The notes: generated by a model not told the origin, from the letters alone. 64,000 bases of DNA from Marsupella aquatica (GCA_973895155.1 OZ316897.1:18925111-18989110), one strand, 5' to 3'; positions 10,348 to 36,809 are shown, counted from the stretch's first letter. Numbers and translations: made by a program.

Positions 10348-10868
10348 TTAGTAAAATATAAAACGCTTAGAATGACGAAAATCAATAATGGACTCCATGT
10401 TTTCGAGTCCCTTTGCAATTTGATCGCAGCTGGGTGAACTGACACCTGTGTGAAATCCAAATGCTCGACGGATTGTTCATGCTAGAGAAAGCAATGCTTA
10501 GTTGCCAAGGGTACTAGCGCTGGCATAGCTTAGCTAGTTCCAGCACAGTTCATGATGGGGAGCAGCTCAATGATCCATTGCTGGTCCAGGAAATCTTGAG
10601 CTCATTCTTAAAGCCGAGGAAATTCATTGCGGTTTGTGTTAAGGATTCCCCAATAGTCATATCGGAGTACATGTGCCTGAGACATCTTCGAAACACACAT
10701 CGTCGTGCTGGTTTGGAAGAATTCGATTGCTGAATTGGGATGGAGTGAAAATCTTGCTCACAGAGAGAGCTGGCGGGATCAGACGAGAATCGATTGTTCT
10801 TAGCTAGACGAAAGAGCTTGTTGAGAGGGGAAGTGTTTCAATCCAGGAGATAGATTGCTTCTGTCAGA

Positions 10869-11797
10869 ATGGGGCTGAGCAAAGTGCTGATCATTGGAGG
10901 GACGGGCCTCCTCGGACAGAATATTACAATGCGAGTGTTAAACTCGGGCATCCCACTTTCGCTTTGGTGCGATCTGTCACACCGAGCGATCCTGCCAAGG
11001 CCGAGGTGTTGAAGTCTTTAGAGGATCAGGGAGTGAAGCTACTGGTGGGCGATCTGTCTGACCATGCCAGCCTTGTGGCTGCCCTGAAGCAAGTCGAGGT
11101 TGTCATTTCAGCTGTGAACTTCGCTGCACTTGTGGACCAGACAAACATCGTGGAAGCTGCGAAGGAGGCAGGAACGATCAAGCGATTTCTCCCATCAGAG
11201 TTTGGTTTTGACATGGAAAAAGTTGTGATGGACATTGCGATCACGAAACCTGCGTTCGAATGGAAGGTGAAGATTCAACTTGCTGCCAAGGAGGCGGGCA
11301 TCCCTTATACCCTTGTGGTTGGGTTCGGTTTTGCAAGCTACTATCTTTCACCGATTCTACAGGAGGCGATTGGACAGCCACCCCCTCGAGACGGAAAATT
11401 GGTGATATTTGGCGATGGCAATGTAAACGTCGTTTTGGTTGACGAGAAAGATATCGGCACCTTCACTATCAAATGCATCGACGATCCAAGAGCAGTGAAC
11501 AAGACTATGCACATCAGGCCGAAGGAGAACGTAGTTTCACAAAACAAGTTAACTGCTTTGTGGGAGAAAAAAATTGGGCATGTTTTCGAGAAGGAAGTTA
11601 TGGATAAGGCTGAAATCCTCAAATCGATTTCAGAGCTGCCTTTCCCGGCCAACTATATTCGAGCTCTGATGTATCACTTAATTGTGGCTGGGGGCATGAG
11701 TGGAGAGCTTGATCCATCTAAGCAGTTGGAGGCTACCGCTCTGTACCCTGATGTTAAGTACACTACCATTGATGAGTACCTTGACCGTTTTGTATGA
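10869..11797 (+). pseudogene. Second IFR/PCBER-like copy with a 1-bp deletion at ~10928 (929 nt versus 930 nt)
   Basis: Copy 1 reads 'aat att gca aat gcg'; copy 2 reads 'aat att aca at gcg'. The remainder (10964-11797) is an intact, near-identical ORF. A sequencing or assembly error cannot be excluded. Confidence 0.8.
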
Positions 11798-14090
11798 ATG
11801 CAGCCTTCGATTAGTAAGTGAGCTTTCGGAGAGCGCCTTGATGGCTTAGTGAAAAACATCCTAGGATCCCATATGTGAGTATCATAGAATTCTATGCTAG
11901 TACAACGCTGCTGAAGATGATCTGTGTAGCAAGACCACTTCGAGCTCCTACCCATAGATTTCTGTTCTATGAAGAGATGATGTCCGTGGCAATTTTTTCA
12001 GCTGGAACTGTCGGATCTCTCTGTCGTTAGCTTTCAAACTTTTCCCAATGTGAATGAGATTTGAATTTCTCTCTGGAGGATTCACTGATTGGAACACTGA
12101 TCGTTCACCGCACCTACGCCAAACCTTGGCGATTCACAACTTTTGTCGGTTGGCTACCCTTTCATTTGCAAAGCTTTAATGACAGATCTTATACATTTTG
12201 TCCAGACTCTTGCAGGAAATAACCAATTCTGGCTCCTGTATTTGCCGGAAATGGCAAAAGGTTTTCAAGGATGAATGGTCAGGGTGTGATTAAGTTTTCA
12301 AAGTTGGAATGCAATGATTTAGTGGGCCAAGACCTTCATGCGCCAACTGTTCAAGATTACATTATCAACTTTTACAATTTCTTAATAAATCCTTCTAAGA
12401 GTCTCTAAGTGAAATGGCATTAGTAAAATGTACCGCTCTTCCTGTAGGATATCAAGACATCTGAAAGAACTGTCTACCTGAAACATTTAATGATTGTATT
12501 GTCTTTGGCATGTGCAAGACAATAAGAAAACAAGAGGCCTTTTGAACCACTTTTGGAATATTCCAGATTAATAGTGGTAGAAACAATTCTTTTTAACTTT
12601 AGCTTGTCGGAGCCTTCACAATGTCACACATATGGGGGGCTGCATATGGTGACACCCCAACTCTTTCGTCGGAATATACCTGTCACCCTAGTAACCTCAT
12701 GATGAATGGCCAGGCATGAGTAAGTATGTTTTTTGTTCCCATATTATTGGATTCAAGCATGGGGTCTCACTTCCATAAATGACACATCACATGCAACAAA
12801 GCAAAATGTCATTTTATGGGTTGTAAAAACATTTCACAAAAAAATTGAATAAATATGATGGTCTTTAAATTCAGTTTGTGCATTATAAGAAAAGATAGGG
12901 TTTCTAGGGAATATTCCCAAATTAGTTAGTGGACCCCTACTTATATATGTTTTAATGCTTATAAGAAATCTAATCTCAAAACAGAAGCAAATTGGAGGCT
13001 CCGGTGGACCACATTTTGGTGGTCAATGGGAGTTTGGGTCCATAATTTGATGATTATAAGCCACAAATATTTGCTTGGGTATTGTTGTTTACATTTTTTT
13101 CCAGAAGGTACATTGTCACTGACCAAATCATCAGTTCTGTCCAAATCTTTTTCACCATAAACCCTTGAGACATTTGGCAGTTCAACCCCACACAATGTAC
13201 ACAAGCAAATTCACTGACTGTTGGGATTGGGGGAGGCCCAATCATTTCTAATTGGAGGGTTGGGAGGGTTGGATAATGCTTTGACACTACCAACAAGGTG
13301 CCCAATGGAGTAGAGTAGATACAGGAGTAGATATCATTTCTAAAGCCTTATATACTATTGTGATGCATATATGAACACTTAATGAATAGTTCATGCATTT
13401 GTATTTTCTGTTGCATGCAAGGGAGGCTTGTGCTCGATCTACCTTACTCCAGAGGCCTCTTATGTTGGGTTGCTGCACAGGTCTTTGGGGCTCTACAACC
13501 AATCCTTGATCATTTCTTACTTACTTGCACAGTATATCAAGTGTAAGCCTTATCCCTTGATGTCTGTCATCATGGCCTTCGTTAGACAACTTACAGGTGC
13601 GGGAACAGGTGTCTAGTGCACTACAGACGGCTAAAGCATTCACTATTCTTTGTAGGGGTGAAGCAACTGGCGTTATATAGGCCTGTTGTCAAATTCCTCT
13701 GCACGCTCGCCCAATGCAGTTACCATGAGCTTTACTGGGCAATTGAGTTTGTTGACAGGTAGCTTTTAGAACAAGAAGCCTTAAAGGATGGGTCTAAGGC
13801 CTTAATTCCTTTTTCCAAAAAATTATGATTTTTAGAAATGTAGTCCTAAAACAAGCAATAAAATCAGCATATTTGTTTGACATTCACCCTTTGCATTTTA
13901 AACTAGACTTTACATAAATGTTTGAGACAAAACATATTCAAAACTTGATTTTCATAGAATTGACCTGTCAAAAACAATCATTTATATCATAGTCTAGGCT
14001 CCAAGGCCATTGACATCTCAAAACTTGCAAGTAAAGTCTACTTCTATGCAACTACAACAACCCTAAAATGTCTTACAGAAATATCCTCAG

Positions 14091-17000
14091 CTAATCATCT
14101 CTTGTTTCCTCAACACTTCCAACAACTCCTGAAGAGTCAAGTCCTATGATTTCCTCCTCTCCAACTCCTATCTCTGGTATTGGTAGAATGGTCTCTTGAA
14201 CATCAACATCTAAATCCATCATGCCTTTGCCATCATCTTCCTCAATGTTGTCCACCAGGTTTAGAATTCTCCCTTTCAAGACACTGCTCTAGCGCTCATC
14301 AATTTCTACAGCAACACAATGTCTTCCTTGTGCCAAAGAGGAAGACAATCCTGTGCCTGACCCTGAACAAATATCTAGCACCCAGTCTCCAACCTGGCTA
14401 AAGTGGGTAACTTCCCAATCCAATAACACTCTTGGCTTCTGGTAAAAGTTCACCATCTTATTGTCCCCGTTGTGTTTCAACTTATTGGTCACAGCTGGAC
14501 ACACAACCACATTATTTCGAGACTCATTAGTCTCAAAATTGAAATGCTCCAAAGACTGTTTCCCATCCTGACTATGAAAGCCAATGGTGAAACACTCAAA
14601 ATTGTTGTTAAGCCTTGCACCTCCTGCATTCTTAACATTGTCTTTCACCCTGCAAAAACCAAAACTTGCATTATGGATTTGTTTCAAAATCAAACATCAT
14701 GAAATCATGAACACCAAAAAAACATATTCACCTTTTGAAATGTTTCTTACCAAATACAATTCTGGAAACCACCATTACACTCAGCTTTCAAGACAGTCTT
14801 GACAGCATCATACTGGTCAATACTATGATGAATGATAATTCGCCAAAGATTTGCCTTGGTGACAACCTTGAAGGACTGAACCATCTTGGTCACCTCTTCC
14901 ACACCCCATCCAACATTGTCTTCATGAAGACAAGCAGTCATTCCAAACCCATAAGGAATATTTGCCAAAGCCAATGTGTAAGCTCGTGATGGGATTACCT
15001 CGTGCAACCGCTGAGCATCGTGTGTAAAGATATCATAGTACACATCCCCAAACTATGGATGCTCAAAAGCATTAGGATGAAGTTCACTTCCCTGGGTCTC
15101 TTGGCAAGATTTCTTCATTGCCAACCAGTTTCGTGCTTGTGCAATATGTGCATTGAACTTATCTGGGAAGGACTTCAACTCTTTGCTTTCTTCATTCTCT
15201 CCCTTCTTTTTTTGGGAGCTGCTGTCTTTCTGAGAAAACAAAATTGGGTACATGAGATTCCTACATACTTAAGAATAAAACTGTAAAACAAATGCTCAGT
15301 CAATCTCAAATAAACTTACCCAAGTCTGGAAGACAAGAACAAAATTCTTCAGCACATTATCAGTGCAGTGTTCTGGGTACTTGGTTTTGCAATTCTTCCA
15401 ACTCTCTTCGTGAAGACAGGTAAGAAATGCTTTTTGAACTTGCATTTGGAATTTGTATCGTTGAAATTCCTGTCCCATCTCTTGAAGAGATAATTCCTTT
15501 GCCAAAACCCTTTGTAGCACTGGACAGATCATGTCCGGATCTTTCAATGCCTGCATGTGTCTCCACTCAGTAAACTTCATATCCTCACATAGCATTTTAG
15601 CATCTCCAGACTTGGACATCTTTTTCTTGGTCTTATCTCCTTTCTGTCCTTTTATCTCACAATTCTCCCATCTGTCAAAGATCTGCCGTATGAAAGACCA
15701 AACAAGATCCTTACGAAATGCCAATTGAAATAAATTATCATTGGCATTCAGAACCTCAAAATCTTTACGTACACCCCAGTCCTTTAGATTGATTTCAGTG
15801 GCACACTCCTTCTTGAAATCAACATTTGATGATGCTCCATTCTCTACAAATCGCATGTGAATGTAATTCACTCTTTGGATGGTGCTCATTTGTTGACGAA
15901 ATTCCTTGCTTCCTGGATAGACAAGCCTGCAAAGATCCAAGATTGCACTCTCCTGTACGACTTGTTGTTGGGAAATTGTAATGCCAGGTCTGCCTTTGCA
16001 CAAGTAGAATGATTTCCCCCAATCACGTAATAGTGGTAATCATTCGTTTTTGAGAAATCAAAATCAGCTCGAGTTGGGCACTCCTTGGGATCAACCAAGA
16101 GAACAAAAGGTGCTGCCAATGGACTAGCTCCAGCTGCTTTCATCCTTGTTGTCAACTGTGTAAGAAAGTAGGGTTGGATATGCCTTACTTGGTACACTGG
16201 CAACTCCAAAGATTTCTCTCGGACAGGTGGGTGAAGTTGTGCAATGTCAATTGTGATTGTCTCCTCTTGAACTCCACACCTCATCAAAATCCCTTCCTGG
16301 TACACCACCCGAGCATCCATAGACATAGATTGAGCCTTCTGCTCCAGATGAGTGGGGACTTTTTCCAACGTCTGCTTCTTGGATTTTGGTGGACTTGGTC
16401 TTGCACCTTGAGAACCCTCTGGTCCACGTTTCTTTGATGAAGTCCGAGTACCGGCAGTGCCCTGTGCTGATCCTCCAGTCACAGTTGTCCCCTCTTGTGA
16501 TCTTGCAATTTGTGAACCAGCACCAGATATTGGAGATGTAACAACCATCTTTCTCGCTGGGATAGAACTCGGACGAGATCCGGAAGGAGCAAAAGAAGGA
16601 CCAGACTTTGGTGGACGGGCACTGGCACTCTTCTATGCTACTTTTTGAAGAATCTCCCTAGACTTTCGAATTGCACTCTTCAATGTGCTGGCATGATGTT
16701 CAAACACAAAACCAGCAATGAGCTCTGCAATCTCATCTTAGCTTTCTTCTGCAGACAGATTCTTCACCTTCTCAATAATCATCTCAATGTCATCAGGCAA
16801 GTAACAATGTGCAGCTCTTCCAAAAAATCTCTCACTGTCAACTGCAATCAGTGTAGATGTCTCCTTTGTTGTGATCAGCATATTGAGGACATCAGCCCCT
16901 CGTTGAAAGACATCAATCCGGCCATAATTCACCCAACCAAGACCTCCAGAAGGCAAGGTCTCGTAGATGCACAACATCAAAAAAGGCTTCTTCCACGATT

Positions 17001-17103
17001 CTATACCCAATGATATTGTCCAGGAAGAGTTTCCAAAATCTGTCAAAGGATGCTCAACGAAAATAGTGTCTAACACCTTCTCCTGTGATTTTGGTTCAAC
17101 CAT
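14091..17103 (-). pseudogene. Spliced gene encoding an unknown N-terminal domain, a ParB/Srx-like domain, a helical linker and a beta-class N4-cytosine/N6-adenine DNA methyltransferase (N6_N4_Mtase-like); disabled
   Basis: The ParB-like 'YYVIGGNHS' is at ~16006-16032. MTase motif IV-like 'ALANIPYG' (14951-14962) precedes 'YQKPRVLLDW..HFSQVGDWVLDICSGSGTG....AQGRHCVAVEID' (motif X/I, ~14352-14375), which is beta order. Introns lie at ~15319-15230 and ~14750-14650. In-frame TAG stops occur at 14289, 15053 and ~16632, with a frameshift at ~15905. Confidence 0.8.
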
Positions 17104-17414
17104 TCTGACTTCCTAAAATCAAGTCCAACAATGCAAAGTCAGCTCTGTTTGTTTTTCAAGTTCAATTGCAGAATTCAGGTTCATGATTTCATGAAGCAAG
17201 GTTCTTACCTTGACAGTGGAGTTGGAAGTTGAATTTGCAGCGCCTGTTGTTCCCGCTTAGAAGAGTGTCACTGGTATTTTTATCCCTGATTTTGGCTTAG
17301 CTTATCTCCTTCACCTCCCTGGCAGATGCCTAAGCTGATCGACCCCTCCCCACTTAATGTCGTTTGCAATGTCCTCCCCAATTTGGACCTCGTCCCTTCG
17401 GCAATGGTCGATCC

Positions 17415-17945
17415 TCCCCAGGCCTTCGACTAAAGCTCCCTCTCTCGGCCTTTGACTATTGCTCCCTCCCTCGCAGCGCCTCGACAATTTTCCTCCCCCC
17501 GGCCTTAGCCAATTTCTTCCTCCCCCCCGGCCTTCACCAATTTCTTCCTCCCCTGGCGCTTTGACTATTTTCCTCCCCCCGGCCTCAACACTTTTTCTTC
17601 CCCCCGGCCTCCAAACGTTTTCCTCCCCCCGGCCTCGACAATTTTTTCCCCCCGGCCTCCACACGTTTTCCTCCCCCCGGCCTCGACACTATTTCCTTCC
17701 CCCGGCCTGCGCCTCGACACGATTTCCTCCCCCAGGCCTTTGCCAATTTTTCCTCCCCTGGCCGGTGCTTCGAGTAATTCCCCTCCCCGAGGCCGGCGCT
17801 TCTTCCCCGCGCCCCTGGCTGCGCCTCGACAATTTGTCCTCCCCCCAGCCTTTGCCAATTTTGCATCCCTCCCCTGGCCTTCAAAAATTTCTCCTCCCTC
17901 CCACGAACTTTGCCAATTTCCTCTCCCCAGGCCTTCGACAATCCC
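17415..17945. repeat. C-rich tandem array of ~30-bp units (consensus about cctcgacaattttcctcccccggc); G-rich on the minus strand
   Basis: About 15 or more visible copies of 'ttcctcccccggcct'. The overlapping PPPG/RPGGG ORFs here are by-products of the array. Confidence 0.9.
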
Positions 17946-20900
17946 TCCCCAAAAACTCTCTCCTGAGCGCAAACTTGCACGGCAGCTTTTGATCTTGCTG
18001 TCTCCTAACCAAATTTCTTCCACTCCCTTCCACGATTAATCCTCCATTCCATGACCGATCTGCGCCTCAACAGCCAGGAAATTACAGAGCTGCACCAGAT
18101 GTTGGTCCGCCCCCGATTTTCAGTTCCAGTTTAGGGATTCAACCCAACTCCTATTCAGACCACACGAATCACTGAGGGAAGAGCTTTCCACAGCACCAAG
18201 CTTCCGCCCACTATAGCTCTTCGCCAAGCTTCCTTTCCGTTCGCGCTTTGCAGATGCACACCCACACTCCAAGCACCTAACAATCCAATTTGTCTCAAAC
18301 TTAGCATTTTCTAATTTTTGGGGTCATGAATTCATGAAGCTTTCGCCCCTTCCACTTCAGGAATCCAGGAAGGTCGTAACCCTTCATGAATTCATGAAAG
18401 GGAATCAAGTATCATTTTGAAAGAATCTAGTGAAAAGTCAAAATTTGGGCCAAAAATAACCAATACCATGGGTAATAGAAATACAAGAAAAAACCAAGAA
18501 AACCCCTAAAAACAGGGGTCATTGAAAACATTTTTGGTTGCAATTGAATAGTCTCCAAAAACCTCAAAGAAAACATGGGGTAAAAATGACCAATGCATTA
18601 CTGATACACTATCTTAAGAGTTTGGCATGAAAACATATGCTAAAAGTAAAAAATAAAATTATGAGAAGCCTCACAATATTTCAGGAGAAGACTTCACAGG
18701 AATGAATTAACCAAGTTTGCAAGAACTCTAATGAGTATTAGAAACCTGAAAACATAAGTAAACTTGTGAGATTTGGAGAAATAATAAACTATTTGTTCAT
18801 GAAAGATTTCTTTCCTTGCCACTAATTCCTAATGAAGGGCGTGGCCCTTTATCTTATTTTATTGCTAATTAAGTTTTTGAGTTATTTCCAAAATCTATAA
18901 AAGGGGCTTCGTATTCATGACTCTATCTCATTTCGATTTTTCAGTTTGAGTTCATTTGGTGTTCTAGGTGTTCCCTTGTGAGTTTTGTGCAATTTTTGAA
19001 ATGGCAGCCTGTTATGAGTCAGACAATTATTCGGGTGGTATTTCGGATGATGTTTCCTTCCCGGATTGTCCTTGTCCTGTTACTTCTCCAGATGCTCCTA
19101 GTAAAACCACTATTTTGGAGATGCTTCCCCCAACTCCAATGAGTAAGTTGAAAGGAAAGGCTCTAAGTGTACCAAATATTCAGCAAAAAGTATTTGGTCC
19201 TTGTCTTAGTGAGCACTCTGACTCTTCGGACTCATTTGAGAGTACAAGTCCCCCTGGCCGTCAAGTATTATCGAATCCTTCTCAAAGGGGGGTTAAATTG
19301 GGTGTGCGTTCTGTAGGCCCTCAACATAGTGGAGAGCTGAAAAAGAGGACTCATGAATTCATGAAGGCCAGATCTGGAGATGTGCCAAATATGCCCAGTG
19401 AAAGCCCAAAAGTGGATTTTTGTGCACTCCGGGAAAGTCGTGGTGTGCAACATGCAACAATGAAAGAGAGTGAGTATTCTCGTCCTACATCTTTCAGATT
19501 TCAAGAAGGAGTGAGAGCGGAAACAAGGAGGCCGCTTGGAACTGAGACTAATTCAAACAAGGAGAGGATCAATTTGAGAAGATCTCCAGGGAACTTTGAT
19601 CGTTTGGCTGAGGTTGGAAGCGGATCTAAGTCGACATACAACAAGGGCAAGAAGAAGGTCTTTGAGGAGATTCCAAACAAGAGGCCAAGAGAGTCAACCG
19701 AACGTGGTTTCTTTGGGAATTCAGATCAAAATCGATCAAACTCACTCCTTTTGAGAGTGAAGGAAGAGCCATTGAGTCCTCAAGGGCCTGCTCGAGGGCG
19801 GGTGAGGAGGGGTTTGTCTGCATACCAACTTGATAAACTTGTGGATATATCTTCTTCAATCGAAGAATCTTCTTCTGAGAGTGATGGAGAGCTTGCAGAG
19901 AGAGAGTTATGATGGCTAATAAACGACCGTCAAATCTCAGCTTGTGTGAAACAAAGATGACAGAGGAGGATATCAAGAAGACAAATCGTAAGTACTGTTG
20001 TCAACGTCATTGTCTCCTGAGTCTTTCACCAAAACAAATTTGTGAAGCACGCTCCAAGTTTTTGAGGCAAAAATCTCAGGATCGATCTTTATCTTTGCAG
20101 TGGCTCGTCAAGCAAGACGGAAATGAAGAGGGGAGGTCCAATGTCACATACATGATTGGACAAAGAGATGTGTGTAGGAAAGCTTTCAAGATGGTCTTTT
20201 GTGTAGGAAATGAGAGATTGAATAGGATCAAGAAGCTAGGCAATCAAGATCTTGCTTATCCTAGACCGGCTGGTCGACCTCCATCTGTGAGAACATTGGT
20301 ATTGAGTTCTTGGTTGAAGTCTTTTTTTGAGACTCGTGTGGAGACTCTACCAAATAAAGATGTTTCACATTTGCCTGATAATTATTCCAAACTAGAAGTT
20401 TGGAAAATATATGATTCAAGCTATGTGATCACTGATGAGTCATCCAAAATATCATATCGGCAATTTTTGAAAGTATGGTCACAAGACTTTGGGCATGTGA
20501 AGATTCCTCATGTGAATCGTTTTAGTGCTTGTGCGGACTGTGAAGAATTCAAAATGATTCGAGACAAAGGAGTCTCAGAAACTGAAAAATGTAAGTCATT
20601 TTCATTTTTGTTGTTTTGAACATGTCTTTGTATTAGATTTGTCAGGAAATCAATTGAGTAATGGGTAAACATTAGGAATGAATTTCAAGTTAACAACTTT
20701 GCTCTACCATGGATTGATTGCAGGGAGAGGAGAAATAATGTTACAAAAACATCGAGAACAACAATCGAAAGAGCAGAAAAACTAGCAAAGCATCGAAAGA
20801 AATGTTTCACAAACCCAGAAAAATATTTGGGAGTTGTGATTGATGGAATGGATCAAAAAAAGACTAGATTACCCCATTGGCCGCGTCCTCCAAAATCCGT

Positions 20901-21743
20901 TGATGAGTCCTGTTTAATCCAAATGCATGTGGTTGGTTATCTTCTTTTCCACGGAGCACTATTTTCTAGGGTGTTCCTTAATTATCCAGTTCTCCATAAT
21001 GATGGAAATCTTACCATTACTATTTTACAAAGAGTATTCCTAGAATATCAAGAGAAGTATGGGGGCCTTCCACCAGTTTTTTACCTTCAGCTTGACAATA
21101 CAAGTAGGGAAAACAAAAACAATTTACTTTTCACATATCTTCACATGCTGGTACAAAAAAAGGTATTTCAAAAAATCAAACTTGGATTCCTCTTAGTTGG
21201 ACACACCCATGATCAAATAGATCAGATGTTTAGTAGGTTCTCAAAAAGGCTTGGAAGATTTAAGGCCTTTACCTATGATAGTTTATGTAAGATTATTCAA
21301 GAATCTTACCAACCCCAACCTGAAATTACCCTTTTAAATGAGACATATGATTTTTGAAAATTTGCTTTCTCAGAGCCTGCTTTGATCAGAGAAAGGATAC
21401 GAAATGTTACGTTTCATCACCAATATAAAATTTATTTTGCTTGTGAAGATGATCAAGTTCCAACACAATGGGGGAAGAAATTTTCCACCGACACGGTTTG
21501 GAAACCAGAAGGAGGTGTTAAATTGTTGAAAGAAGACATGCCACCAAAGGTGATTGGGTGCTCTGATGGGATGCCACTTATCAAGAAAGGAGACAAGAAA
21601 TGAGATGACGAAAGGGCGGGAAATCAAGCTCATGTATCATCTTCAGGAAAAATGACGTTGTCCAAAATGGATGATTGTTTGAATGAAATTCAAAAAGGTA
21701 TATTTTCAGCTCAGATATTATTCTCGGAAGAAGAAGTTGTTTG

Positions 21744-21924
21744 TGTTAAAACGGATGACCTAACCCTAGTTACCTAGCTTAACCCTAGTGTATAGGAGTT
21801 AAGGTAGTTACCATAACCGCCAACACTTGTACTATATATGGAGTGGTCTTTACTCCCTAACGTAATGAGAAGGTAGTGAGCTTGTTGGTGTATGAGTATC
21901 CAAGATTATGTTTGTTCCTTAATA
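21744..21924 (+). repeat. 5' LTR
   Basis: Direct repeat of 27372-27552. Confidence 0.95.
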
Positions 21925-22306
21925 CGTTATCAGCACGACCTCCCAACAGAGCTTTTACTTTCCGATGATTCAGAATGGCTATGGCTGCCCCTAAACATAG
22001 CTTCTGAATTATTTTAGCGAATAGTGGATTGCATGGTACAATTTCCTTTCGTTGTTTCCTCCAGAAACACTGACTCCCACACTCCAACAACGGCTCGGGT
22101 GTAACATTGTGAGCGGTCAATCGAGACAACAATTCCAGGCTCGGATTGACGCAAACACGAATAGAGATTGAGAATTGACCAGGGAAGTTTCCCGATCACT
22201 TACACACATAGATTATAAGTTTAAAATCCAATACAGATTTCCATAGAATCTTTCCTATCTAGACTGTCCTAATTCCAATAGCCACCAATCAACGAAGCAT
22301 AACACG

Positions 22307-25300
22307 ATGAATTCCATAGAGAAACTACAATTCAAGGCACTAGCAATCGATGGTGCAAATTATTTATCCTGGTCCTTGGATGTTGAGGCATCCCTTTCAT
22401 CCAAAGACCTCCAGGACGCGATACTAACTGATACTAGATTGACCCTACAGCAAAAAGCACGGGCCCTAGTATTCATTCAACACCACCTCGCCGAACCGCT
22501 AAAGATCCAATACTTAAATCAATTCAATCCACGAGTCCTATGGGAAGACCTGCAACTTAGGTTTGACCACATGCGCTTGGTCTCACTCCCCGCAGCTCGC
22601 CATGACTGGATTAATTTGCGGGTGCAGGATCACACGACTATCGCCAACTACAATGGCAAACTCTTCAGAATAACCTCCCAACTCGCGCTATGCGGCCATC
22701 CGGTTGGAGACGATGAGCAAATTGAACGCACCCTCTCCACATTCGCCCCAGGAAACCTTCTCCTGGCAGCTCAGTACCGCAACATGGCATTCACCAGATA
22801 TTCAGAGCTCATTGCCCAAATGTTACTGGCCGAGAAGCACCAATTGCTGCTCCTTGAGAACGCCAAAACATGCCCACCTGGAACCGCTGCCCCCCCACCA
22901 CAACCCGAAGCTAATTTCAACAGATCCAACGCAAGAGCAAGAGGACATGGACGAGGAAATTTTAGAGGGAGAGGCGGCAGAAATTCAGGTAGAGGCCGAA
23001 ACCCAAGCCAAGGAGGGAGGGGATATGGCCGACCGGAAAGGGAAGGCCAGAATTCCAGAAACCAACCTCGCGGAGGCGCATATCGAGGAAGAGGCCGCAA
23101 CGGAAACTGGGGCAGAGGATCAAATAACTGGAAAAGAGACAGAAGCAATCCAGTAGAATGCTTCAGGTGCGGCACCAAAGGGCATTTACAAAGAGACTGC
23201 AGGGCGCCCGCACATCTAGTGACACTATACAAACAAAGCCTGGAGATCCCAAGAAATGAAGCACACGGAAATTACATGGAGACCACAGAAGACATAGCAG
23301 CTTACATTCAAGACCCCGCGGCACCTGAGGTACACACCGCCCAATTGGGGTCACACCCATTACCACCGGACGATCACAACAACTGCATCGTCAACAACGG
23401 TACTTCTCACTCCATACTGCGCAATAAAGAATACTTTACCAGAATTACACCCTCACATAGGTCTATGACCACAATCACCAGATCCAACTATATCGAAGGA
23501 GGCCATGGCCCCGCACACGTTTGATTCCCAAAAGGCACTAATATATATATAGATTCAGCCATTTATGTTCCCAGGGCCACCAGAAATCTCATCAGTTTCC
23601 GAGACATACGTGCCAACAAATTCCACATACACACTGAAACTTGTAAAGACCAGGAAGTCCTCCACATCCTAGAAAACACTACATTAGGGCCCATAATCCG
23701 AGAGATCTTACCAATATTCCCACCAGGGTTATATATTACCCGCATTTATGCATTCCATACCGAAAGCACCACCCTGACTGCCACACAGCTATGGCACAAC
23801 CGCCTAGGACACCCTGGTACAAATATGTACCACAACATTCTAAAGGACACAGTTGGAATACCCCATGATGTGCACCCCTCAGCTGCTAGTAGACCATGTC
23901 TAGCCTGCTCCCAAGGAAAAATGGTGACCCGCCCATCACCATCTAAAACCATCTACACCATCCCACAATTCTTTGAAAGACTGCACGCAGATGTTTGGGG
24001 GCCTATAGATCCGCCCTCTGGCCCCTTCCGTTACTTCTTCGTCATTATAGACGCTTCAACAAAGTGGTCTCAGGTCTCCCTGCTCTCCACCAGGAACCTG
24101 GTGTTTTCCAGAATCCTGTCACACATACTCACTTTAAAACATCAATTCCCGGATAATCCAATTAAAACCCTCAGAGTCGATAATGCTGGGGAATTTACTT
24201 CCAAAACCTTTGACGATTTCTGTGAAACTGCAGGAATCATGACCGAGTATTCTGTACCCCATGTCCACTTTCAAAATGGAATAGCAGAGTCGGTCATTAA
24301 ACGACTACAGATGGTGGCCAGACCACTATTGATGCAATCCAACTTACCATCCGCTGCCTGGGGGCATGCCATCCTTCACGCGGCAGCCCTACTCCGATAC
24401 AGACCATCCTCATTCAACACTAAGACTCCTCATTTTTTGGCCTACGGCTTGCCACCCAATATCTCACACTTAAGGACATTTGGCTGCCTGGTCTTAGTAC
24501 CTATATTAGGCCCCAAACAAACTAAAATGGGCCCACAACGGCAGAAAGGCATCTATGTTGGCTTCGACTCCTCATCAATAATCAGATACCTGGAACCTCT
24601 AACATCAGACGTATTTTAAGCTCATTTCCAGGACTGTACATTCTTTGAAACGGAATTCCCAGGACTCACTAACCAAGCAGGCATGGGTGCTATGAGCGGA
24701 AAAGAACTACAATGGCTTATAGCCCACCCACTTACCAACGACCACCAAACAAGAGAGGCGGACGAGGGAGTTCAACGGGTCTTATACTTACAACAAATGT
24801 TGCTGAAACTCCCAGACGCATTCAATGATGCTGCCACTATCACTTGTTCGCATACTGAAGCAGCGAACACCCCAGCTTGAATCCAGCTAACCAAGACACC
24901 GGCAACCGATACCGCTGCCAGAGCCAAGAGAGGTCGCCACCTGCCAGATCACTAACAGAGACACCATCACAGGTACATGCTGAGAATGACAAAATTACAA
25001 TCAATTACATGCACACTGGCAAGACACTGAAGCGCAACCAGCAGCAGGTAGACGATACATTTGCTTTTCAAATTTCAGAGGACATAACTAATGATACACC
25101 AGACCCTATCACCGTTGCAGAGGCCCAATCCAGATCAGATTGGCCTCAATGGGAGATCGCTATTAACTCCGAACTAGACTCCCTCATAAAACGAAAGGTC
25201 TTTGGGCCTATTATACCTGCACCCATAGGAACCCACCTCACAGGCTATAAATTCACCTTTGTCAGAAAACGCAATGCCAAAGGCGAAGTAATCAGGCACA

Positions 25301-26914
25301 AAGCTCGCCTAGTGGCGAAGGGCTATACCCAGATCCCCGACCGGGACTTCGACCAAACGTACTCACCAGTCATGGATTCAATCACCTACAGATATCTTAT
25401 CACATTTGCATTACAGAAGAAACTAGTCATGCATATACTTGATGTGATCACAGCCTATCTCTATGGTGTTCTGGACACCGTCCACCATATACATGAAGGC
25501 ACCCCCGGAACTGATACAGAGATTAAAGTTCCACATTGAGGGGGAGAAAACTGGTACTAAAACCACAGGTCTACAACCTGGCGCACAGAAAATCCGCCCT
25601 GTAGGGGATTCCAATGCAATGACAAAGAAATCAGGACCTCCTGTCCCAAGACAGCACGACGTGCTTCACACACCTGAACAGAGGCATCTAATTTCCTCAC
25701 TGCCTCAGTCTGCTACACAGACGACTAAAAGAAAACCAGACCTTGCCGTCCAAGTGCTTCGGTCTATGTACGGCCTGAAGCAAAGTGGACGCAACTAGTA
25801 TCAACGGTTCAAAACTGAAATGCTCACATTGGATTTCGTCAACAACGACATTGCGCCCTGCTTATTTATTAAACAGGAACGAACCGAGTTCGTGATCATC
25901 ACAATATATGTAGACGACATCAGCATTTTCAGCACACCAACCATCACAACAAAAACCATTGACATCCTGAAGCAGACCTTCGAGATGAGGGACATCGGAG
26001 CTCCCACTTATTGTTTAGGCCTGCAATTCAACTACTTACCAAACGGAATCCTCATCAACCAATCAACATATACAAAAAAGGTCCTACGACAATTCAACAT
26101 GGATTCTTGTCACCCGGCGAGCACCCCGATGGATCTAAGATTGTTAGACGCCAAGAAAGACACATTCAGAAGATGCACAGAAGCAGAACCGACATTAGGA
26201 CCAGAGAAGCCCTACTTATCGGCCATTGGTGCACTCATGTACCTCGCCACATAGTCTCGCCCCGACATCTCCTTCGCCGTAAACCTACTGGCCCGCCACA
26301 GTGCAACACCCACAATCCGCCACTGGAACGGCATCAAGCGTATCTTCCGCTACCTTCACGGCACCACCGACATGGGGCTGTTCTTCTCCAAGAAATCAGC
26401 AAATACACTGGCTGGATACGCTGACGCCAGGTATCTCTCAGACCCTGATGACTCGAAGTCCCAAACCGGGTATGTATTCCTCCAAGGGGGCACGGCATTA
26501 TCATGGCAAAGCTGCAAACAAACACTTACAGCAACGTCCTCCAACCATGCGGAGATAATAGCGCTGTACAAAGCTACAAGGGAGTGCATATGGCTCAGAC
26601 ATCTAATCAATCACATCTAGAAACACAGTGGCAGACAACTCATCGATAAACCAACGATCATCTATGAAGATAACCGCCCCTGCGTCGACCAAATCGCCAA
26701 AGGATTCATAAAAGGTGACCGCATTAAGCACATAGCCCCTAAATTCTTTTACACTCATGAGCAGCATGGCGAAAAAGTCGACGTGCAATGGATCCCGAGT
26801 AAAGATAAGAGAGCAGACTTATTCACTAAACCCCTTCCACCAGCGCTCCACCGCGAACACACACAGGGCATAGGAATGCGGAGTATGGCCACTATACTCA
26901 AAGAAATCGACTAA
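22307..26914 (+). pseudogene. Copia gag-pol polyprotein, disrupted
   Basis: Gag 'LQFKALAIDGANYLSW', zinc knuckle CFRCGTKGHLQRDC, degenerate protease 'IVNNGTSHSI', integrase 'LHADVWGP…RVDNAGEF…NGIAES', RT 'KARLVAKG…YGLKQSGR…YVDD' and RNase H 'GYADA…IYEDN'. Stops at 23522, 24617, 24878, 25796, 26252 and 26618, plus a frameshift at ~25480. Confidence 0.93.
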
Positions 26915-27371
26915 GACCCACCCCGGAACGATATCGATCACTTCCCCATCCACGACGACTCGAGCTTCCACGATCGATGCAGACAACGGGCAACTCCAAA
27001 GCTCCACCATCGACTACGTGACATCGCGATTCAAACCACGCCGAATTCCACTGCGACAACTACGGACGAGACGTGACACTCAATTAGAACATCGACCTTG
27101 ACTTAGGTCCTTCGTTGCTCTACAAACTCACTGTAGCACTCACGAGGAGTATACACTCCATATAACGAGTATTTTTTTTACTTTACATAGCGTACACCTT
27201 TTTTCAATGGCACCAACCATATCATAGTAGTGGCACTCTTTCCAGGAGTGAAGCCTGGTTTTAAGGAGACCATCCTAGTGTTGGGCCACACAAAAAGGAT
27301 TACAATTCTAGAGTTAGCTCCCTCACAATTGTGATTGTATGCAACATAGCCAGCATCCAACCAAGGGGGAG

Positions 27372-27552
27372 TGTTATAACGGATGACCTAACCCTAGTTA
27401 CCTAGCTTAACCCTAGTGTATAGGAGTTAAGGTAGTTACCATAACCGCCAACACTTGTACTATATATGGAGTGGTCTTTACTCCCTAACGTAATGAGAAG
27501 GTAGTGAGCTTGCTGGTGTATGAGTATCCAAGATTATGTTTGTTCCTTAATA
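27372..27552 (+). repeat. 3' LTR
   Basis: Direct repeat of 21744-21924, preceded by a polypurine tract. Confidence 0.95.
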
Positions 27553-28869
27553 GTTTGGTGGACTTCTTTTTTTGAGGAACAAAGAGAATTCAATCGATCT
27601 CTCTTGCTTGAAGAAAGACCTTTGATCTCTCCATTTGAATGGCCCAAGGCACAAGGGGATACAAATGTTGAAGCTCATCTCGGAGCTGAACCTCTTACAA
27701 CTATATTGAATGAGGAAGAAATTGAAGAGAGAGTGTACGGTCCAACTAGAGAAACTTATGTTGGTCCATATCGAAATCAAGAAAAGATAGATGCAGAGAA
27801 GGAGAATATGGAAGGTGATTTTTCGGATTTGGAAATCAACACATTTATTTCTGTGGCCACAGAGAAGTCTGAATCATTTTGGGTGGCTAAAGTAGAAAAA
27901 ATTGTTCTTCGCGATGAGGCTCACATCCCAAAGATTATCTCAGTTTTGTGGCATGCTGCAAAGAAAGGATCCGACCCTTGGAAAGGAAAATATCTGCCAG
28001 AAGTGTTGAGTTACGAGAAGAAGAAAAGTGGACGAGGCAAGGGAACCTTGAAACCAGTTTGGTTTCGTCAAGACCTTGATCTGTCTTCAACTACGGTCTT
28101 TGCATATAATTTTATGCTAACAAGGTCTGATACTCTTTACAAGAAAACAATAGATCGTATTAAAATACGACTCTCAGAATTTCTCAAGGAGGAGAAAGAC
28201 CAAGAAGGTGAAGGTAGCATAGTTAGAAATTATGAACAAGAAACTTCAATGGAAGTTCCTCTAGAAATGAATGGTAGGAATTGAGATTTACCAATCTTAG
28301 CAATTTTGTCAAACAAGAGTATTTGCAATTTATTATTGTTTGAGTTGGTGGCAAACCATAAATGTTGTGAATGATGAATTCATGAATTCATGAATCATAT
28401 TGAAAGAAGTTTGACATTTTGAGAATGTCCATCTTGTGGGCAGTCTTGTTTGAGAAATTCAGAAAACAAAATATTAACTAAAAGAGGTACCTTCTAGAAT
28501 CCCATATATATTTGAAAGCTTTTGATATACTCGTCATTCCCTTTGTGTGAATGATGGTTTTTCTTGGTAAATGAACCCTAGGATCCTACAAATTGCAAAA
28601 TAATTCGGAAATCTTGACCCTCTTTTGAAAACTTTACATATTTGGGATGTCAATGAACTTTAGGGTGGTATTTCAAGGGTGAATTTGTTATTGAGCCGAT
28701 TGAATGTGTGCGAGTAATAAAGTGCAACATTGAAATATGTGGTATTTGCTTATTAAATGTTTCCCACAACCAGTTTTGTGATTTTGAGTAGTCAAAATGA
28801 TGCCCTATTTTGTGTTTTTTTGCAAGTTTTGAGTTCTTGCCAAAAAAAGAGCTTGTTTTTAGAAACCTG

Positions 28870-29520
28870 GAATTGCTGCCAACTTGGCTACCATCTTACC
28901 AGGTCAACACATTTACAAATTTATGGAGGCACAAAGAAATAGCTGCTTAAGTGGGATTTTTAAAATTTGAACCTACTGTAGACACTGAAAAGTCGGATAC
29001 ATAACTGCCCCTGATTGATTGGTGCAATAACATCTTGTCCCCACCCCAAGAAAACATGGAATCTAAATTGTGGGCCGAACAACTTGTACCACTTTAGCAA
29101 AGCACAGGGCCACAAAAGGGTTTAGGGAGACAAGTGTTTGGAACTTGCTGCCCACTTGACTAGTACCATCTTACCAGGTCAACACATTTACAAATTTATG
29201 CATGCACAAATAAGGTTTTGGGTTGGACCTTTTTGTTTTTGTCTAAATGTATCCACTGAAAAGTCAATGTTCACACCAGGATGCTGAGAATCTATTTAAG
29301 ATTTATATTAAAAATATCATTGTTTAGGTTTGGTTTTATGAGAATAACTAGAATTACTAGGTCAACACGTTGATGCATGCACAAATAAATATTTGCTTGG
29401 ATTTTGCAGTGCTTTCATGAACTTATGGGCTCCGCGACAAATTCAGTTACTTGGGTACCATCTCACTAGGTCAACGCAATATCTGCATGCACAAAAAAAT
29501 GTTTGCTTGGATACTATTAA
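28870..29520. repeat. Degenerate repeats (ccatcttaccaggtcaacacatttacaaatttatg…cacaaa…tttgcttgg)
   Basis: The core recurs at ~28890, ~29165, ~29355 and ~29457. A similar 'cacaaatatttgcttgg' lies at ~13062. Confidence 0.7.
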
Positions 29521-30040
29521 AATGTTTTATAAAAATGCGTTTTATGAAAACGACAAGAATGCCAAACCGGGAGAAACGATCTCACACAGCAAAGAAAATC
29601 CAATAAAGAAGAAAAAGGGAAGACCAAGAGGAGACCCGAGAAGACCAGAGGCATCCAAAAGCCAACGAATCCTCCACAACAACTACAGTAAAAGTACACA
29701 AAGGACCCCAACAACTTATACCCTATCGTTGGGACAACTTAAGAAAACTTGGGAAAACTTTTTGTTTGGGACGTACCAGGCCCACAAATTCAGGGGCACT
29801 GTCTCCCATGCAGATTCACCAACATCAACACTCCGCGTTTTTTGACTTAAGTTCTCTCCACTATAGTAATTTATCCCACGTACAATCATACACAACCCAG
29901 CGATTACACTTGATTATTGAGGCATTTGGGCCCTTCACGAGCTTTCACAGAACATGGACGGTCTTGGTCAAAGGATAGGACAAGAAAATGGACTGTTGAG
30001 TCAAAGGGTTAGCAATTAAGTCCTCGACTGAGTCCTCATC
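29520..30040 (-). mobile_element. Possible decayed 3' fragment of a LINE
   Basis: A stop-interrupted Trp-rich frame (NRWVVYDCTWDKLL*WRELK) is followed by a T-rich, UTR-like tract on the minus strand. Weak resemblance only. Confidence 0.25.
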
Positions 30041-30054
30041 AGAATTCGCTGGAC

Positions 30055-30316
30055 CAGTGTATTTTTAAGTTTTCTTATTTTTAGAGAGTGGCGAATTTTT
30101 GCTTCTCTAAGGGAGTAGATTCTAAAAACATTCTATCACATGTAACTGAATTAAATTGTGACCGTCAGATATCCTTAGATTTAAGGAGGACCATTAGATT
30201 CTGGCTAATGGGATCCATGATTTGGTGGAAGAGTGGCTAATGGTGTCAGAAAAATGTGGCGAAAGTTTTTTGGGGAAGTGGAATTTGGCTAAAATTCGCA
30301 TTTAAAAAATACGCTG
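30055..30316. mobile_element. hAT-type MITE, 262 bp
   Basis: TIRs are cagtgtattttt… / …aaaaatacgctg, with a perfect 8-bp TSD cgctggac at 30047-30054 and 30317-30324. Confidence 0.88.
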
Positions 30317-32913
30317 CGCTGGACTCCACTGCATTTGGACCGCTTAGCTTTCTACAGATGCCCAATAATTGGTCACAGGAGGTCTTTGGTGAGTCGATGA
30401 GGAAGGTCCACTTTTAATTTCATTCCAATAGTTCTTGCCCATACCAATATAATGCTGTCCAATAAGAGTTATGAGAATTCCCTTAAAAATTGTGGACACT
30501 GATATTACATGGAAGGTGCTTGGCCATACCAATATATTGTTTTACCATGAAAGTTGTGGACGTTGATCTTTGGCAAATAGGGCTTGGCCTTACCCAATAC
30601 AATGTTTTCCCATAAGTGTTATGGGATCTTGTCTCCAAGGTGGAGATTTCTGTTATTTGATACCCCTTAGCTTTCAATATAGTGATGGTCAATTGGTCTT
30701 TGATAAGTCTCTGAGAAGAACCAGGCACACAAATATATTGGCTGGCAGTGTGGCAGATAATGTCCGTCTTTTCTCTTATTCACCTGGGCTGTCTCATTGT
30801 CAATTCCATTAGGGCGTCTCAAATGCTAAAATACACGGGCTTTGAGTTGGGCCTAGACTTTGCAGTGCGGGATGCAGACTTAAAACGTCAGTACGCTGAG
30901 TTGGCGACCACACTTTTTCCTGGGCCTTTTTGCCCATGGAAGGCCGACTCACTACAAGCCCTATCAAAGTTTACCACCCTTGGTTACTTGTGCCTAAAAC
31001 CCACGTCCTGGCTGTAGTTCCGGCCATGATGTTTTCTGGTCTGTAGCCTGGGTCTATGAATGAGAAGTACAAAGATTGAGATGTTCTATTAGGGCATTCT
31101 CAAACTTTGAAGCTGTGAAAAAAAATGACACCCAAAAGTATTGGTTTGGTCACGTCAGGAGTGTGTGGACACGGATTTTTGTGTCCGCCACTTTTTTCTT
31201 GGGAATTCCTTGCCGACCGCAACCGGAGGCAGAAACACAAGGTTTGAGACACCTGGTTACTACAGCTCCTTTGAGAAGGAAACTCACTGATACAGACGAA
31301 CCTCTGTTGTCAAAAGAATAGTTACAGAAACTAACTGGCTGGGGTCAGTTGGCCAGGGGATGAACTTACCTAAAACCGAGAGCTGAGAGGCCCCAGGTTA
31401 ATTCAATCCCCCCTCCACATACAAGGGTTGTGGATGGTGAGTATGTGTGTGGGTGGGTGTAGTGGTGAGAGTACCTGTTTCTTTTGAGCCCTGGCTAGGC
31501 AGCTTTGGGCTCTGGTCCAACCCTCTGTCCCTCCTGGTCCTGGGTATGACCCCCCATACCCACCTTGTGGGCTACCCTACATAGGTGCATGCATGAGTTA
31601 TTATCTATCCTCTATTGGATTAGTCAGCTTTCGCTTTTCAAGGCACAAAAAAACAGTTCCAGGTGCAGGTGAATCAAATTCAGCATGTACCTCCACTGTA
31701 GCAAATTCCAGCTTTTGATTATCTTAGAGAGCTCCAAAAAGAATGGTTTGTGTGCGAGTAGGCTATGGAGTCTCTACCACCAACCCACTGCTGAAACCGA
31801 GTGATTCCTCTATAGTGATAATCCCATCCCTGGAGTTGCCGACAATCTGTGCCATTCCTCCAGAGGACGCTAGAGTATAGGACCAACCTTACAATAGCAT
31901 CAAACTCGTGCGCATAATTCTGTCAGCTGACTCTAAAGTCCGCGGCCTTCGGATTGCAACAACGGAAAGGGCAGTCACCTTTTGGGAACTGTACCTACCC
32001 AGGAAGAAGGAATAAAGAAGTAAGATTCCCTGAAAAGGCTAAGGAATCTGAGTTCTGGTGCCTTCCAGGGAAATTCCGATCAGCAGCGACTGCCATTGAC
32101 CGTGTTTTGTGACTTTATGTCACGAAAGAAGCCGTCCGAGGAAAGAGAAGTGAATCGACTTTGTCAAAGTTTCCAGGGGAGAGCATGAATTGACTTGATT
32201 GTAGAATTCAGGGCAGAGAGGACAACGGTCCAAACTCAGGGCAGAGGACCAGTGAAACACGGTCCTTGAAATTGAACGTCGAGAACCAGGAGGAGGCATT
32301 AAGAGAAGGGAGTTGAGTTGAGTGGAGTTGAGTTGAGTTGAGTGGAGTTGAAGTACACGGATTGCGAGTAAGGGTGTGGAATTGAAAGAGAGTAAAAGAG
32401 ATGAAGGAAAAGGGAGATGGGATCACGTGTGCATGTCTGCATTGTGACATTGTGTTGCTGTTGATCGCTCAGGAACTCGACCTGCGATTTTCACTTTTCA
32501 ATCACTTTTGCCAGGTAGTTTCGGATAATCACGTAAACGCGCACAGCTAGAGAGGGAGAGAGACGATCCAATTTGCCTTACTTTCTCTTCAACCATGCAC
32601 ATCCACAGATTAGTCGGCGAGAGACGATCCGCACATAGACATTGTATGACGGGCGCATGCTCCACCACGGTCTTGTCCGGCTGGATGCCTTGCCCAGAAT
32701 TACATCATAATTTTGGATACAGCTGAATTCTTGCAATCTATCTACCAGTAAGGAGGTATACCTGGACTGAGAGGGAAGATAGCATGAATGGGTTTCGGCA
32801 GCAGGTGAAGGTGTTCGTAGGAGAAGCTTTTGTCATTGCACGAGTACTATGAGACACCGCAACCTTGTTACTAATTCACATACAAGCAACGATTGCGCAA
32901 GAGAAGGGTAGCA

Positions 32914-35900: not shown

Positions 35901-36809
35901 TCGTGACATAAAGTCATCTAATGTGCTCGTTGACGAAAATTTTGAGGCCAAGGTTGCCGATTTCGGTGTTGCGAAGCTACGTGACATCACCGAACCGAGT
36001 ACTATTGCATCCCATGTTGTGGGAACTTATGGCTACATTGCTCCTGGTTGGTACCTTCTTTTTCTCCACCCGCCGAAATGGTAGACACGGTTTGTCAGCA
36101 TTGCGTCCCCTGTCATTAGAAAGGACAAATTAGATATCTTCTTCATTTCACTTGTCCTAGCAAGCACTCAGCCAACAAAACTGTTCCTTCGCGAGCCACG
36201 GCAGCAGTGGCATACCTTGCTTTCAAGCTGCTCAAGTCGCGATGTCCCTAAACTGCAAGTAGAACATCTTCCCTTTTTGACACATTTTCTCACTATTCGT
36301 CCCCTTCGTCACACTTACTCTCGCTAAACCTCCCTTTAGACAACTAAACTGCAAATACAAATTACTGATCTGACTAGTCGTTGATATGTACAGAGTATGG
36401 CTATACCATGAACATCAGCGAGAAGGTGGACGTCTACGGCTATGGAGTAGTTCTTCTAGAGCTCCTCACAGGGAAGACCTCGTTAGATCGTACATTTCCT
36501 GAAGGAATGGATCTTCCAAACTGGGTGTTCGCCAAGATTACTGAAGGCCAAACGATGGAGCTGCTACTGGACAGTCGGCTGCTAACAAATGGGAATGACA
36601 ATGTACTGACCGAGATGCTCCTAGTACTGAGGGTTGCTCTGTTCTGCGTGAACAAAAATCCTGCAGCACGGCCCACTATGAGAGAGGTTGTAGAAATGCT
36701 AGTGCAGGCCAAGTCTGGCCACAAAAGCAAAATAGAAGAGAAAGAATCTCTCGGTGAGGAAAATGTCGACCGCCTCGTTCTGCAAACGCAACTGGAATTT
36801 TTCCGATAG
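32914..36809 (+). CDS. LRR receptor-like Ser/Thr kinase (LRR-XI-like); exons 32914-36046 and 36394-36809
   Basis: Hydrophobic signal segment, LRRNT 'DGLALMELKQGL…W…C.RWYGVSC', more than 20 plant LRRs, 'GNPNLC', a TM helix and a kinase domain (HRDIKSSN, DFG). The conserved intron splits GYIAP|EY (GT 36047, AG 36393). Confidence 0.95.
36144..36249 (+). repeat. Dispersed repeat of ~105 bp; second copy at ~49386-49496
   Basis: 'catttcacttgtcctagcaagcactcagccaacaaa…gatgtccct' is near-identical at both sites. Confidence 0.9.

Follow-up and report, generated by a model that had tools for sequence, protein, structure and literature searches.

Transposons that carry enzymes modifying chromatin or DNA are a known kind of element. 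Papers are cited here by identifier, each as excerpts, and our statements about them refer to those excerpts. Phages and prophages have ParB-N6_N4_Mtase fusions (ParB-terminase loci; PHROG families 67, 498 and 3008), in which a ParB domain is followed by a beta-class amino-methyltransferase. In the VANDAL DNA transposons of Arabidopsis, the VANC protein targets internal motifs that are particular to its VANDAL family, which makes anti-silencing self-specific (PMC5735166). Some retrotransposons carry DNA methyltransferases (DNMTs) of the C5 kind, with which self-methylation is possible and of which one case is in a charophyte (PMC5890265), and DIRS elements carry adenine methylase domains that have been called likely inactive (PMC4738411). 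Fungal DNA transposons carry TET/JBP genes, for which help in escaping methylation silencing has been proposed, and SET genes occur in oomycete elements (PMC12730594). DN4MT1 of Marchantia and N4CMT of bdelloids are eukaryotic beta-class amino-methyltransferases of prokaryotic origin, encoded by host genes, that have a (T)SPPY motif and write N4-methylcytosine (4mC); DN4MT1 lacks additional domains, and N4CMT contains a chromodomain (10.1101/2021.02.12.428880, PMC8885841). Here, we describe an element in a 64,000-nucleotide stretch of Marsupella aquatica DNA (GCA_973895155.1, OZ316897.1:18925111-18989110), called the window below. It pairs a gene for a predicted DUF7869 transposase with a gene for a ParB-fold protein fused to an amino-methyltransferase. 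We are highly confident that this is a two-gene transposon with an amino-methyltransferase maintained by selection.

We compared this locus with each of the known systems. The element resembles VANDALs in being a plant DNA transposon with a second gene, a tandem array and short motifs that are element specific and lie in internal noncoding regions (PMC5735166). However, VANDALs belong to the Mutator-like elements, and those excerpts do not present VANC as a DNA methyltransferase, whereas this element has a ParB fold, a methyltransferase and a palindrome of 14-16 bp that is conserved across lineages. The DNMT and DIRS carriers are retroelements; ours is a DDE-fold DNA element in which the catalytic motifs are conserved. 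TET and JBP erase 5-methylcytosine (5mC) in fungi, whereas this would be an amino-methyl writer in plants, and the excerpts of PMC12730594 mention no ParB or palindromic site. The phage fusions have the same domain order, but similarity to phage records is confined to the methyltransferase part (23-29% identity among the 25 of 301 records listed). The plant gene contains introns, its protein has a further domain at the N terminus and a long helical middle, and we found no close prokaryotic relative. Unlike DN4MT1 and N4CMT, the family is multicopy, transposon linked and ParB fused, with a D-x-P-Y motif, and by this motif it would fall outside their group. The initial annotation had connected the gene to 4mC and these two enzymes. 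That connection was not upheld: the motif is D-x-P-Y and not SPPY, the best relatives are mostly adenine enzymes, and DN4MT1 lacks extra domains. The excerpts of PMC4738411 contain no land plant ParB-fused beta-class clade, and those of PMC12344493, PMC12973397, 10.1101/2021.09.26.461848 and 10.64898/2026.08.24.746577 do not mention such an element. The literature searched, which did not extend to Repbase Reports, subscription papers and supplements, held no description of one. Judged from sequence, what appears new is a DDE-fold DNA element that has palindromic sites of its own and whose ParB-fused amino-methyltransferase keeps its catalytic motifs.

The two genes lie head-to-head with 1,897 bp between their start codons, in agreement with the initial annotation, which gave about 1.9 kb. 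The methyltransferase gene, on the minus strand, runs from an ATG at 17103 to its natural stop at 14091-14093 in three coding exons with GT-AG introns. The DUF7869 gene, on the plus strand, runs from an ATG at 19001 to a stop at 28282-28284 and matches DUF7869 with an E value of 4.1e-48. The parts of the two genes are as follows.

14091-14649, minus strand: last coding exon of the methyltransferase gene, with QKP at 14433-14441, the S-adenosylmethionine-binding motif I (DICSGSGT) at 14352-14375 and a premature stop at 14289-14291
14751-15229, minus strand: middle coding exon, with motif IV (NIPY) at 14951-14962 and a premature stop at 15053-15055
15320-17103, minus strand: first coding exon, encoding an N-terminal domain (weakly PH-like), a disordered linker, the ParB/sulfiredoxin-fold domain and a helical region
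15880-16281, minus strand: ParB/sulfiredoxin-fold domain, with approximate limits carried over from residues 323-455 of the homolog P0005 and GGNHS at 16006-16020
17113-17208: predicted intron in the 5' untranslated region (5'-UTR) of the methyltransferase gene
19001-20590, plus strand: transposase exon 1, with the MAACYE start, a low-complexity region, a Cys-rich region and a 2-nucleotide frameshift near 19897; intron limits were read from the sequence
20724-21743, plus strand: first part of transposase exon 2, with the DUF7869 core (DGMDQ at 20842, QLDN at 21088, GHTHD at 21199)
21744-27552, plus strand: copia long terminal repeat (LTR) retrotransposon nested in the transposase gene, with 181-bp LTRs that differ at 2 sites
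27558-28284, plus strand: C-terminal part of the transposase, in register with the part preceding the copia element

The motifs GGNHS, NIPY, QKP and DICSGSGT, previously read in the spliced minus-strand gene, are all present, and its assignment to the amino-methyltransferases was borne out. The last exon (window 14292-14696) scores 31.8 bits against the PF01555 profile, above the cutoff of 26.7 (E value, 1.8e-7), and 5 of 30 homologs also pass this cutoff. The exon also matches two phage DNA methyltransferase families, phrog_3008 (E value, 8.8e-11) and phrog_67 (E value, 3.1e-9). Motif IV precedes motif I on the minus strand, which is the beta-class order, and the same order is found in the homologs P0117 and P0089 and in L001 and L002, two metagenomic loci described below. 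P0117 matches phrog_67 with an E value of 1.8e-17, and its look-alikes in the ESM Atlas, at 0.86-0.87, are phage clusters with PF02195 and PF01555, a lead only. Both coding introns of the window gene are at identical places in L001 and L002.

We then considered which base the enzyme would methylate. L001, L002, Chara, Adiantum and P0117 all have D-x-P-Y as motif IV. Across the family it varies among DIPY, DFPY, DLPY and DAPY, with degenerate DIPR and DIPH, and SPPY occurs in no family member in which motif IV is present. NIPY, given earlier as the motif of this enzyme, is correct for the window copy and is private to it: the base at 14962 gives DIPY in every contig there from the sequencing runs X1 to X3, and L001 and L002 also have DIPY. 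DPPY is typical of bacterial N6-adenine enzymes and SPPY of most N4-cytosine enzymes (PMC8885841). The closest solved structures are DpnA-type enzymes, CcrM and M.MboIIA, all weak matches, and the best relatives in PDB and NCBIfam are mostly adenine enzymes, with weak matches throughout. Thus, motif IV and the nearest profiles make N6-methyladenine (6mA) a likelier mark than 4mC.

The ParB-like domain of the initial annotation was recovered by fold and not by profile. PF02195, the Pfam ParB family, matched none of nine window pieces or 30 homologs, and a sequence profile of the ParB exon had no match in PDB. However, an AlphaFold model of P0005, a homolog of the first coding exon (13-row alignment; mean pLDDT, 57.5, mostly 70-88 over the ParB domain), matches the ParB/sulfiredoxin fold over residues 323-455, with PadC as best match (Z score, 9.9; root mean square deviation [rmsd], 2.8; 94 residues aligned) and KorB as the second best (Z score, 8.1; rmsd, 2.8; 92 aligned). 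The top eight rows of the search all had the ParB/sulfiredoxin fold, and the next unrelated row had a Z score of 4.9; the top Foldseek match was a sulfiredoxin, with a weak E value of 0.11. ParBs that form CTP clamps, including Spo0J, KorB and PadC, have an arginine in a GxxR nucleotide-binding motif. In the 32 rows listed for this family, the arginine is replaced: the place after G-x-H is taken by S, T, C or another residue and never by R. In one phage, the ParB that activates a DNA-modifying enzyme does so without needing its nucleotide-binding residues (PMC13229309). Therefore, by analogy, the ParB domain here may be a DNA retention module and not a CTP switch.

The helical region that follows the ParB domain is modeled at low confidence. 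The N-terminal domain (16740-17103, minus strand; P0005 residues 27-154) is modeled at good confidence; we did not accept a PH-like identity for it, the matches being many and weak (best Z score, 4.9). This domain could dock on chromatin proteins. In a tree of the ParB domain (32 rows, after four proteins without the anchor motif were dropped), the copies form lineage-specific clusters, as expected for transposon cargo, and long branches meet, so that neither origin nor transfer can be read from it.

The DUF7869 protein is probably the mobilizing enzyme. Its homolog P0144, to which the window piece is 53% identical, was modeled from 61 rows (pLDDT, 81.5). This model resembles prototype foamy virus integrase (Z score, 9.3; rmsd, 3.0; 132 aligned) and Mos1 (Z score, 8.6; rmsd, 3.6; 158 aligned), and RNase H-like folds were also matched. 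DGMDQ, QLDN and GHTHDxxD in the window copy would supply the acidic triad, and D207 is near-invariant in the 61 rows. A sequence profile of DUF7869 had no match in PDB, and an ESM Atlas search outside its own family returned only unnamed eukaryotic clusters. The LDN..ENKN and GHTH..D motifs of the DDE-type core resemble those of Sola transposases, to which the protein may be related. Sola elements have terminal inverted repeats (TIRs) and a 4-bp target duplication, neither of which was found for the window element. They are rare in plants (PMC12973397). The transposase C terminus has a conserved beta-rich stretch, FWVAKV...VLWH (27820-28150, plus strand), that has no match in Pfam, PHROG or NCBIfam; by eye, the Riccia DUF7869 proteins P0166 and P0190 have a similar stretch.

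This copy is dead, as the initial annotation stated. In addition to the stops listed above, the methyltransferase gene has premature stops in its first exon at 16738-16740 and 16633-16635, four in all, and a frameshifting deletion of 31 bp at about 15903. The transposase gene has two stops (21355-21357 and 21601-21603), a second frameshift near 20775 and the copia insertion. The copia element is young and is flanked by a 5-bp target duplication (21739-21743 and 27553-27557). Its LTRs end in TG...TA and not TG...CA, as in the Bianca lineage, and it has several stops and frameshifts.

To look at the element as a mobile unit, contigs from four of the six listed runs were compared with window positions 10500-21750, and contig depth is not equal to copy number. 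In run X1, contigs in the flank have depths of 19.4 (12915-13796) and 23.7, while those in the element have depths of 173 (13776-14285), 187 (14347-14918), 163 (15902-16554) and 167 (20803-21275). These high-depth contigs differ from the window by 1-4 letters per 470-650 bp; a more diverged contig of the spacer between the genes has a depth of 89. Depth thus steps up about 7- to 10-fold at 13776 and is high across both genes. Run X2 goes from 66 in the flank to about 1,110-1,130 in the element, X3 has the same step, and X6, which is from another organism, has high depth where the exons of the two genes are conserved and little over the flanks. The step gives one boundary.

13776-13796, no strand: left edge of the multicopy unit, approximate since 13508-13796 is mildly raised in X2 (167)

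A short hairpin beside TTAA was noted by eye at this step (13776-13808; arms at 13778-13783 and 13795-13800), and no partner for it was found on the right side. The sibling contigs are more than 99% identical to the window copy and lack at least five of its lesions (14962, the deletion at about 15903, 19897, 20775 and 21601, among the 40 of 836 substitutions listed). Therefore, the family is young and recently amplified, probably with intact copies. A sibling copy probably carries another insertion in its methyltransferase gene, since contigs of X1 and X2 depart from the window at 16713 with the same loose end.

We asked whether the two genes stay together in relatives. A metagenome scan gave six loci (L001 to L006) from 97 candidates, and linkage can be read in two of them, L001 and L003, since L002, L004, L005 and L006 are too short upstream. 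The methyltransferase gene is complete in L001, and a divergent open reading frame (ORF) on the opposite strand lies 1 kb upstream of it. The start of this ORF is identical to that of the window transposase at 13 of 21 residues, with a BLOSUM score of 65, while the next of 1,336 Met-started 21-mers scores 32. Among the window, L001 and L002, the proportion of synonymous differences (pS) is 0.65-0.93, which is saturated, yet amino acid identity over four regions is 55-82%, and the exon with motif I has 73-81%. That protein identity is kept while synonymous sites are saturated demonstrates that the methyltransferase is under purifying selection, as judged by these comparisons. A two-gene mobile unit had been proposed, and the raised depth over both genes, the recurrence of the layout in L001 and this selection all agree with it. 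The linkage holds for the window's subfamily and is possible for the wider family.

Relatives are widespread. A search of 1.84 billion representatives with the ParB piece found 74. The 20 that we looked up included sequences from Riccia sorocarpa (6, plus 1 more), Chara braunii (4), Adiantum nelumboides (4), Exaiptasia (1) and Ptychodera (1), and the family is multicopy in Chara, Riccia and Adiantum. The viral and prokaryotic genome collections held no close relative of either gene. P0109 from Exaiptasia and P0115 from Ptychodera have a ParB-like domain without methyltransferase motifs, and DUF7869 is also present in Branchiostoma; the element family or domesticated remnants of it may reach marine animals.

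The best clue to mechanism is an internal palindrome, TCATG-N4-CATGA, that was not part of the initial annotation. It occurs 7 times in the window, with 0.11 expected and no such count in 100 shuffles. Six of these are in the 8,810 bp of the element and one is in the 49,375 bp outside it (59865-59878, in noncoding DNA, probably by chance). The sites within the element, with other features of the spacer, are as follows.

14697-14710, no strand: palindrome inside the last methyltransferase intron (14650-14750)
17181-17194, no strand: palindrome inside the predicted 5'-UTR intron of the methyltransferase gene
17412-17949, no strand: C-rich tandem array in the spacer, 15 copies of units of about 25-29 bp
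18324-18337 and 18384-18397, no strand: palindrome pair in the divergent spacer
18896-18920, plus strand: TATA-like box with a TCATGA half-site 13 nucleotides after it, 5' of the transposase start
19351-19364, no strand: palindrome inside the transposase ORF (exon 1)
28380-28393, no strand: palindrome just 3' of the transposase stop

L001 has four palindromes, in the ORF, as a spacer pair (1233 and 1273) and in the last intron (4375), and L002 has three, as a spacer pair (316 and 358) and in the last intron (3215); the other four of the six loci have none. The intron around the palindrome is not otherwise conserved, and the offset within it differs by about 13 nucleotides in the window. That an intronic motif outlasts saturated synonymous divergence implies selection on it. 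The TATA-like box with its half-site has no second match in the 64-kb window. In L001, one match with a spacing of 12 lies upstream of the divergent ORF, and the five other loci have none. No tandem array was found in L001 or L002. At 306-335 of L002, the first spacer site is within a perfect palindrome of about 30 bp, 17 bases of which match the window's tandem array. We infer from the last palindrome that the element extends at least to 28380-28393. Between 28868 and 29512 there are three to four dispersed copies of a motif of 25-50 bp, one of them like 13065-13084 in direct orientation; these could be subterminal repeats of this element or of another.

These observations suggest a mechanism. 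The ParB-methyltransferase would recognize the element's own TCATG-N4-CATGA palindromes, either through the helical region after the ParB domain or by methylating the CATG cores. The fused enzyme would then write 6mA on the element, and with this mark the promoter region shared by the divergent genes, and with it the transposase, would stay active despite 5mC silencing by the host. In this reading the element would work on the same principle as VANDALs with their VANC proteins (PMC5735166). Each step is conditional: the palindromes would be bound by this protein and not by the transposase or a host factor, they would serve as parS-like loading sites or as methylation targets, the mark would be 6mA, and its effect would be anti-silencing. 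Palindromes of similar size are found at parS and in KorB operators. We hold the whole of this mechanism tentatively, at somewhat less than an even chance. A fuller version, in which an old streptophyte transposon lineage carries a phage-derived load-and-write system whose ParB clamp loads at parS-like palindromes in introns and promoters while the enzyme lays down 6mA, is possible but doubtful.

Several observations weigh against these readings. CTP clamping by the ParB domain is doubtful, because the GxxR arginine is replaced and because the phage ParB does without nucleotide-binding residues. The central four bases of the palindrome vary between lineages, unlike a fixed parS. A D-x-P-Y motif does not strictly exclude N4-cytosine methylation. 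The methyltransferase gene in the window is strongly depleted of CG (observed/expected ratio, 0.28, against 0.68 in the host gene part and 0.72 and 0.76 in L001 and L002), and therefore the window lineage has probably not escaped 5mC. With regard to the unit itself, no contig or read bridges both genes in the runs compared. A comparison of 12000-14100 with 28284-33000 revealed neither TIRs nor a target duplication, and none of 1,085 weak candidates was above chance or convincing; the right end lies beyond the mapped part. The L001 contig stops short of the transposase core, and BLASTP of the N termini is weak (E value, 0.064). L003, which is distant, degenerate and among retroelement pieces, has no transposase match within 2.8 kb upstream or 4 kb downstream. 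Among the locus tags listed (120 of 167 hits in one case), none of eight Riccia methyltransferase family tags is beside any of 10 DUF7869 tags, the closest being 31 apart, and none of five Chara tags is beside either of two DUF7869 tags.

Other explanations share much of this evidence. Because KorB is the second-best match of the modeled fold (Z score, 8.1) and acts on DNA as a clamp with KorA (PMC13229309), the protein could instead be a KorB-like autorepressor, one that binds the palindromes at the two divergent promoters and lowers the element's activity, so that fewer copies arise and the host is harmed less, while methylation times or locks the repression. The clustering of palindromes at promoters and by the TATA-like box would fit, as would the modest depth of the family (about 7- to 10-fold in X1). 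However, palindromes are also in the far intron, within the transposase ORF and 3' of it, an autorepressor has no need for a conserved catalytic methyltransferase, and a shared fold is no proof of function; we consider this explanation unlikely. More unlikely is a transposition cofactor. As in the two-gene Harbinger and Spm elements, the second protein would bridge ends that lack long inverted repeats, and hemimethylation after replication would gate transposition, much as Dam gates IS10. That no TIRs were found and that linkage is kept across saturated synonymous divergence are consistent with a cofactor, and Spm requires both TnpD and TnpA (10.64898/2026.08.24.746577). The palindromes, however, are internal, with none near the mapped left edge at 13776, and many Riccia DUF7869 genes have no adjoining methyltransferase tag among those listed, so DUF7869 elements may move alone.

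A different chemistry is slightly less probable again: the enzyme would write 4mC, occupying cytosines that the host would otherwise 5-methylate. PF01555 spans both chemistries, two eukaryotic 4mC writers of the same fold are known, and CG and CCG abound in the spacer array. Against this, no family member with motif IV has S-P-P-Y, the best matches in PDB and NCBIfam, all weak, are mostly adenine enzymes, and DN4MT1 has TSPPY and no added domains. The least probable explanation is passenger or chance linkage, in which the methyltransferase gene would stem from a different mobile element or travel with several unrelated carriers, and it would be the transposase or a host factor that binds the palindromes. 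Fungal TET/JBP genes do hop between transposon superfamilies (PMC12730594), and L003 and the nonadjacent tags listed for Riccia and Chara would fit such a history. But L001 keeps the divergent layout, the start motif, the TATA-like box with its half-site and the places of the palindromes despite saturated synonymous sites, and raised depth continues without a break across the two genes and their spacer.

The window is plant nuclear DNA, with NmrA-like genes, a leucine-rich repeat (LRR) receptor kinase and malectin-like and LOB pieces. We ruled out bacterial contamination, since three elements share conserved spliceosomal introns and the window element is flanked by plant genes on either side. 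The neighbors are as follows.

931-2034 and 10808-11794, plus strand: two NmrA/isoflavone reductase-like genes (PF05368), apparently without introns
4500-5291 and 5858-6316, minus strand: two ORFs (264 and 153 codons) that lie between the NmrA genes and have no Pfam match
32875-36081, plus strand: LRR receptor kinase, a host gene
38515-46889, minus strand: long multiexon coiled-coil host gene without a Pfam match
53998-54426, minus strand: LOB domain piece
56404-56811, plus strand: malectin-like piece

AT-rich blocks at 9384-9832 reappear about 3,120 bp further on, at 12524-12949, a local duplication. Contig depth is also high at 12756-13131, which indicates another repeat there.

How transposons escape 5mC silencing is understood in few cases, and this element offers a concrete enzyme, a candidate site and near-intact copies. 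It adds a ParB-fold protein and a palindromic cis site to eukaryotic mobile DNA. In Chara, Riccia and Adiantum, numerous unannotated "N-4/N-6 methylase" genes are probably transposon cargo. The existence of a genuine DNA 6mA writer in land plants is contested. If the load-and-write system were true, it would be a programmable tool, since the mark would follow a moved palindrome, and it would mean transposon-encoded adenine methylation, confined to its locus, in land plants.

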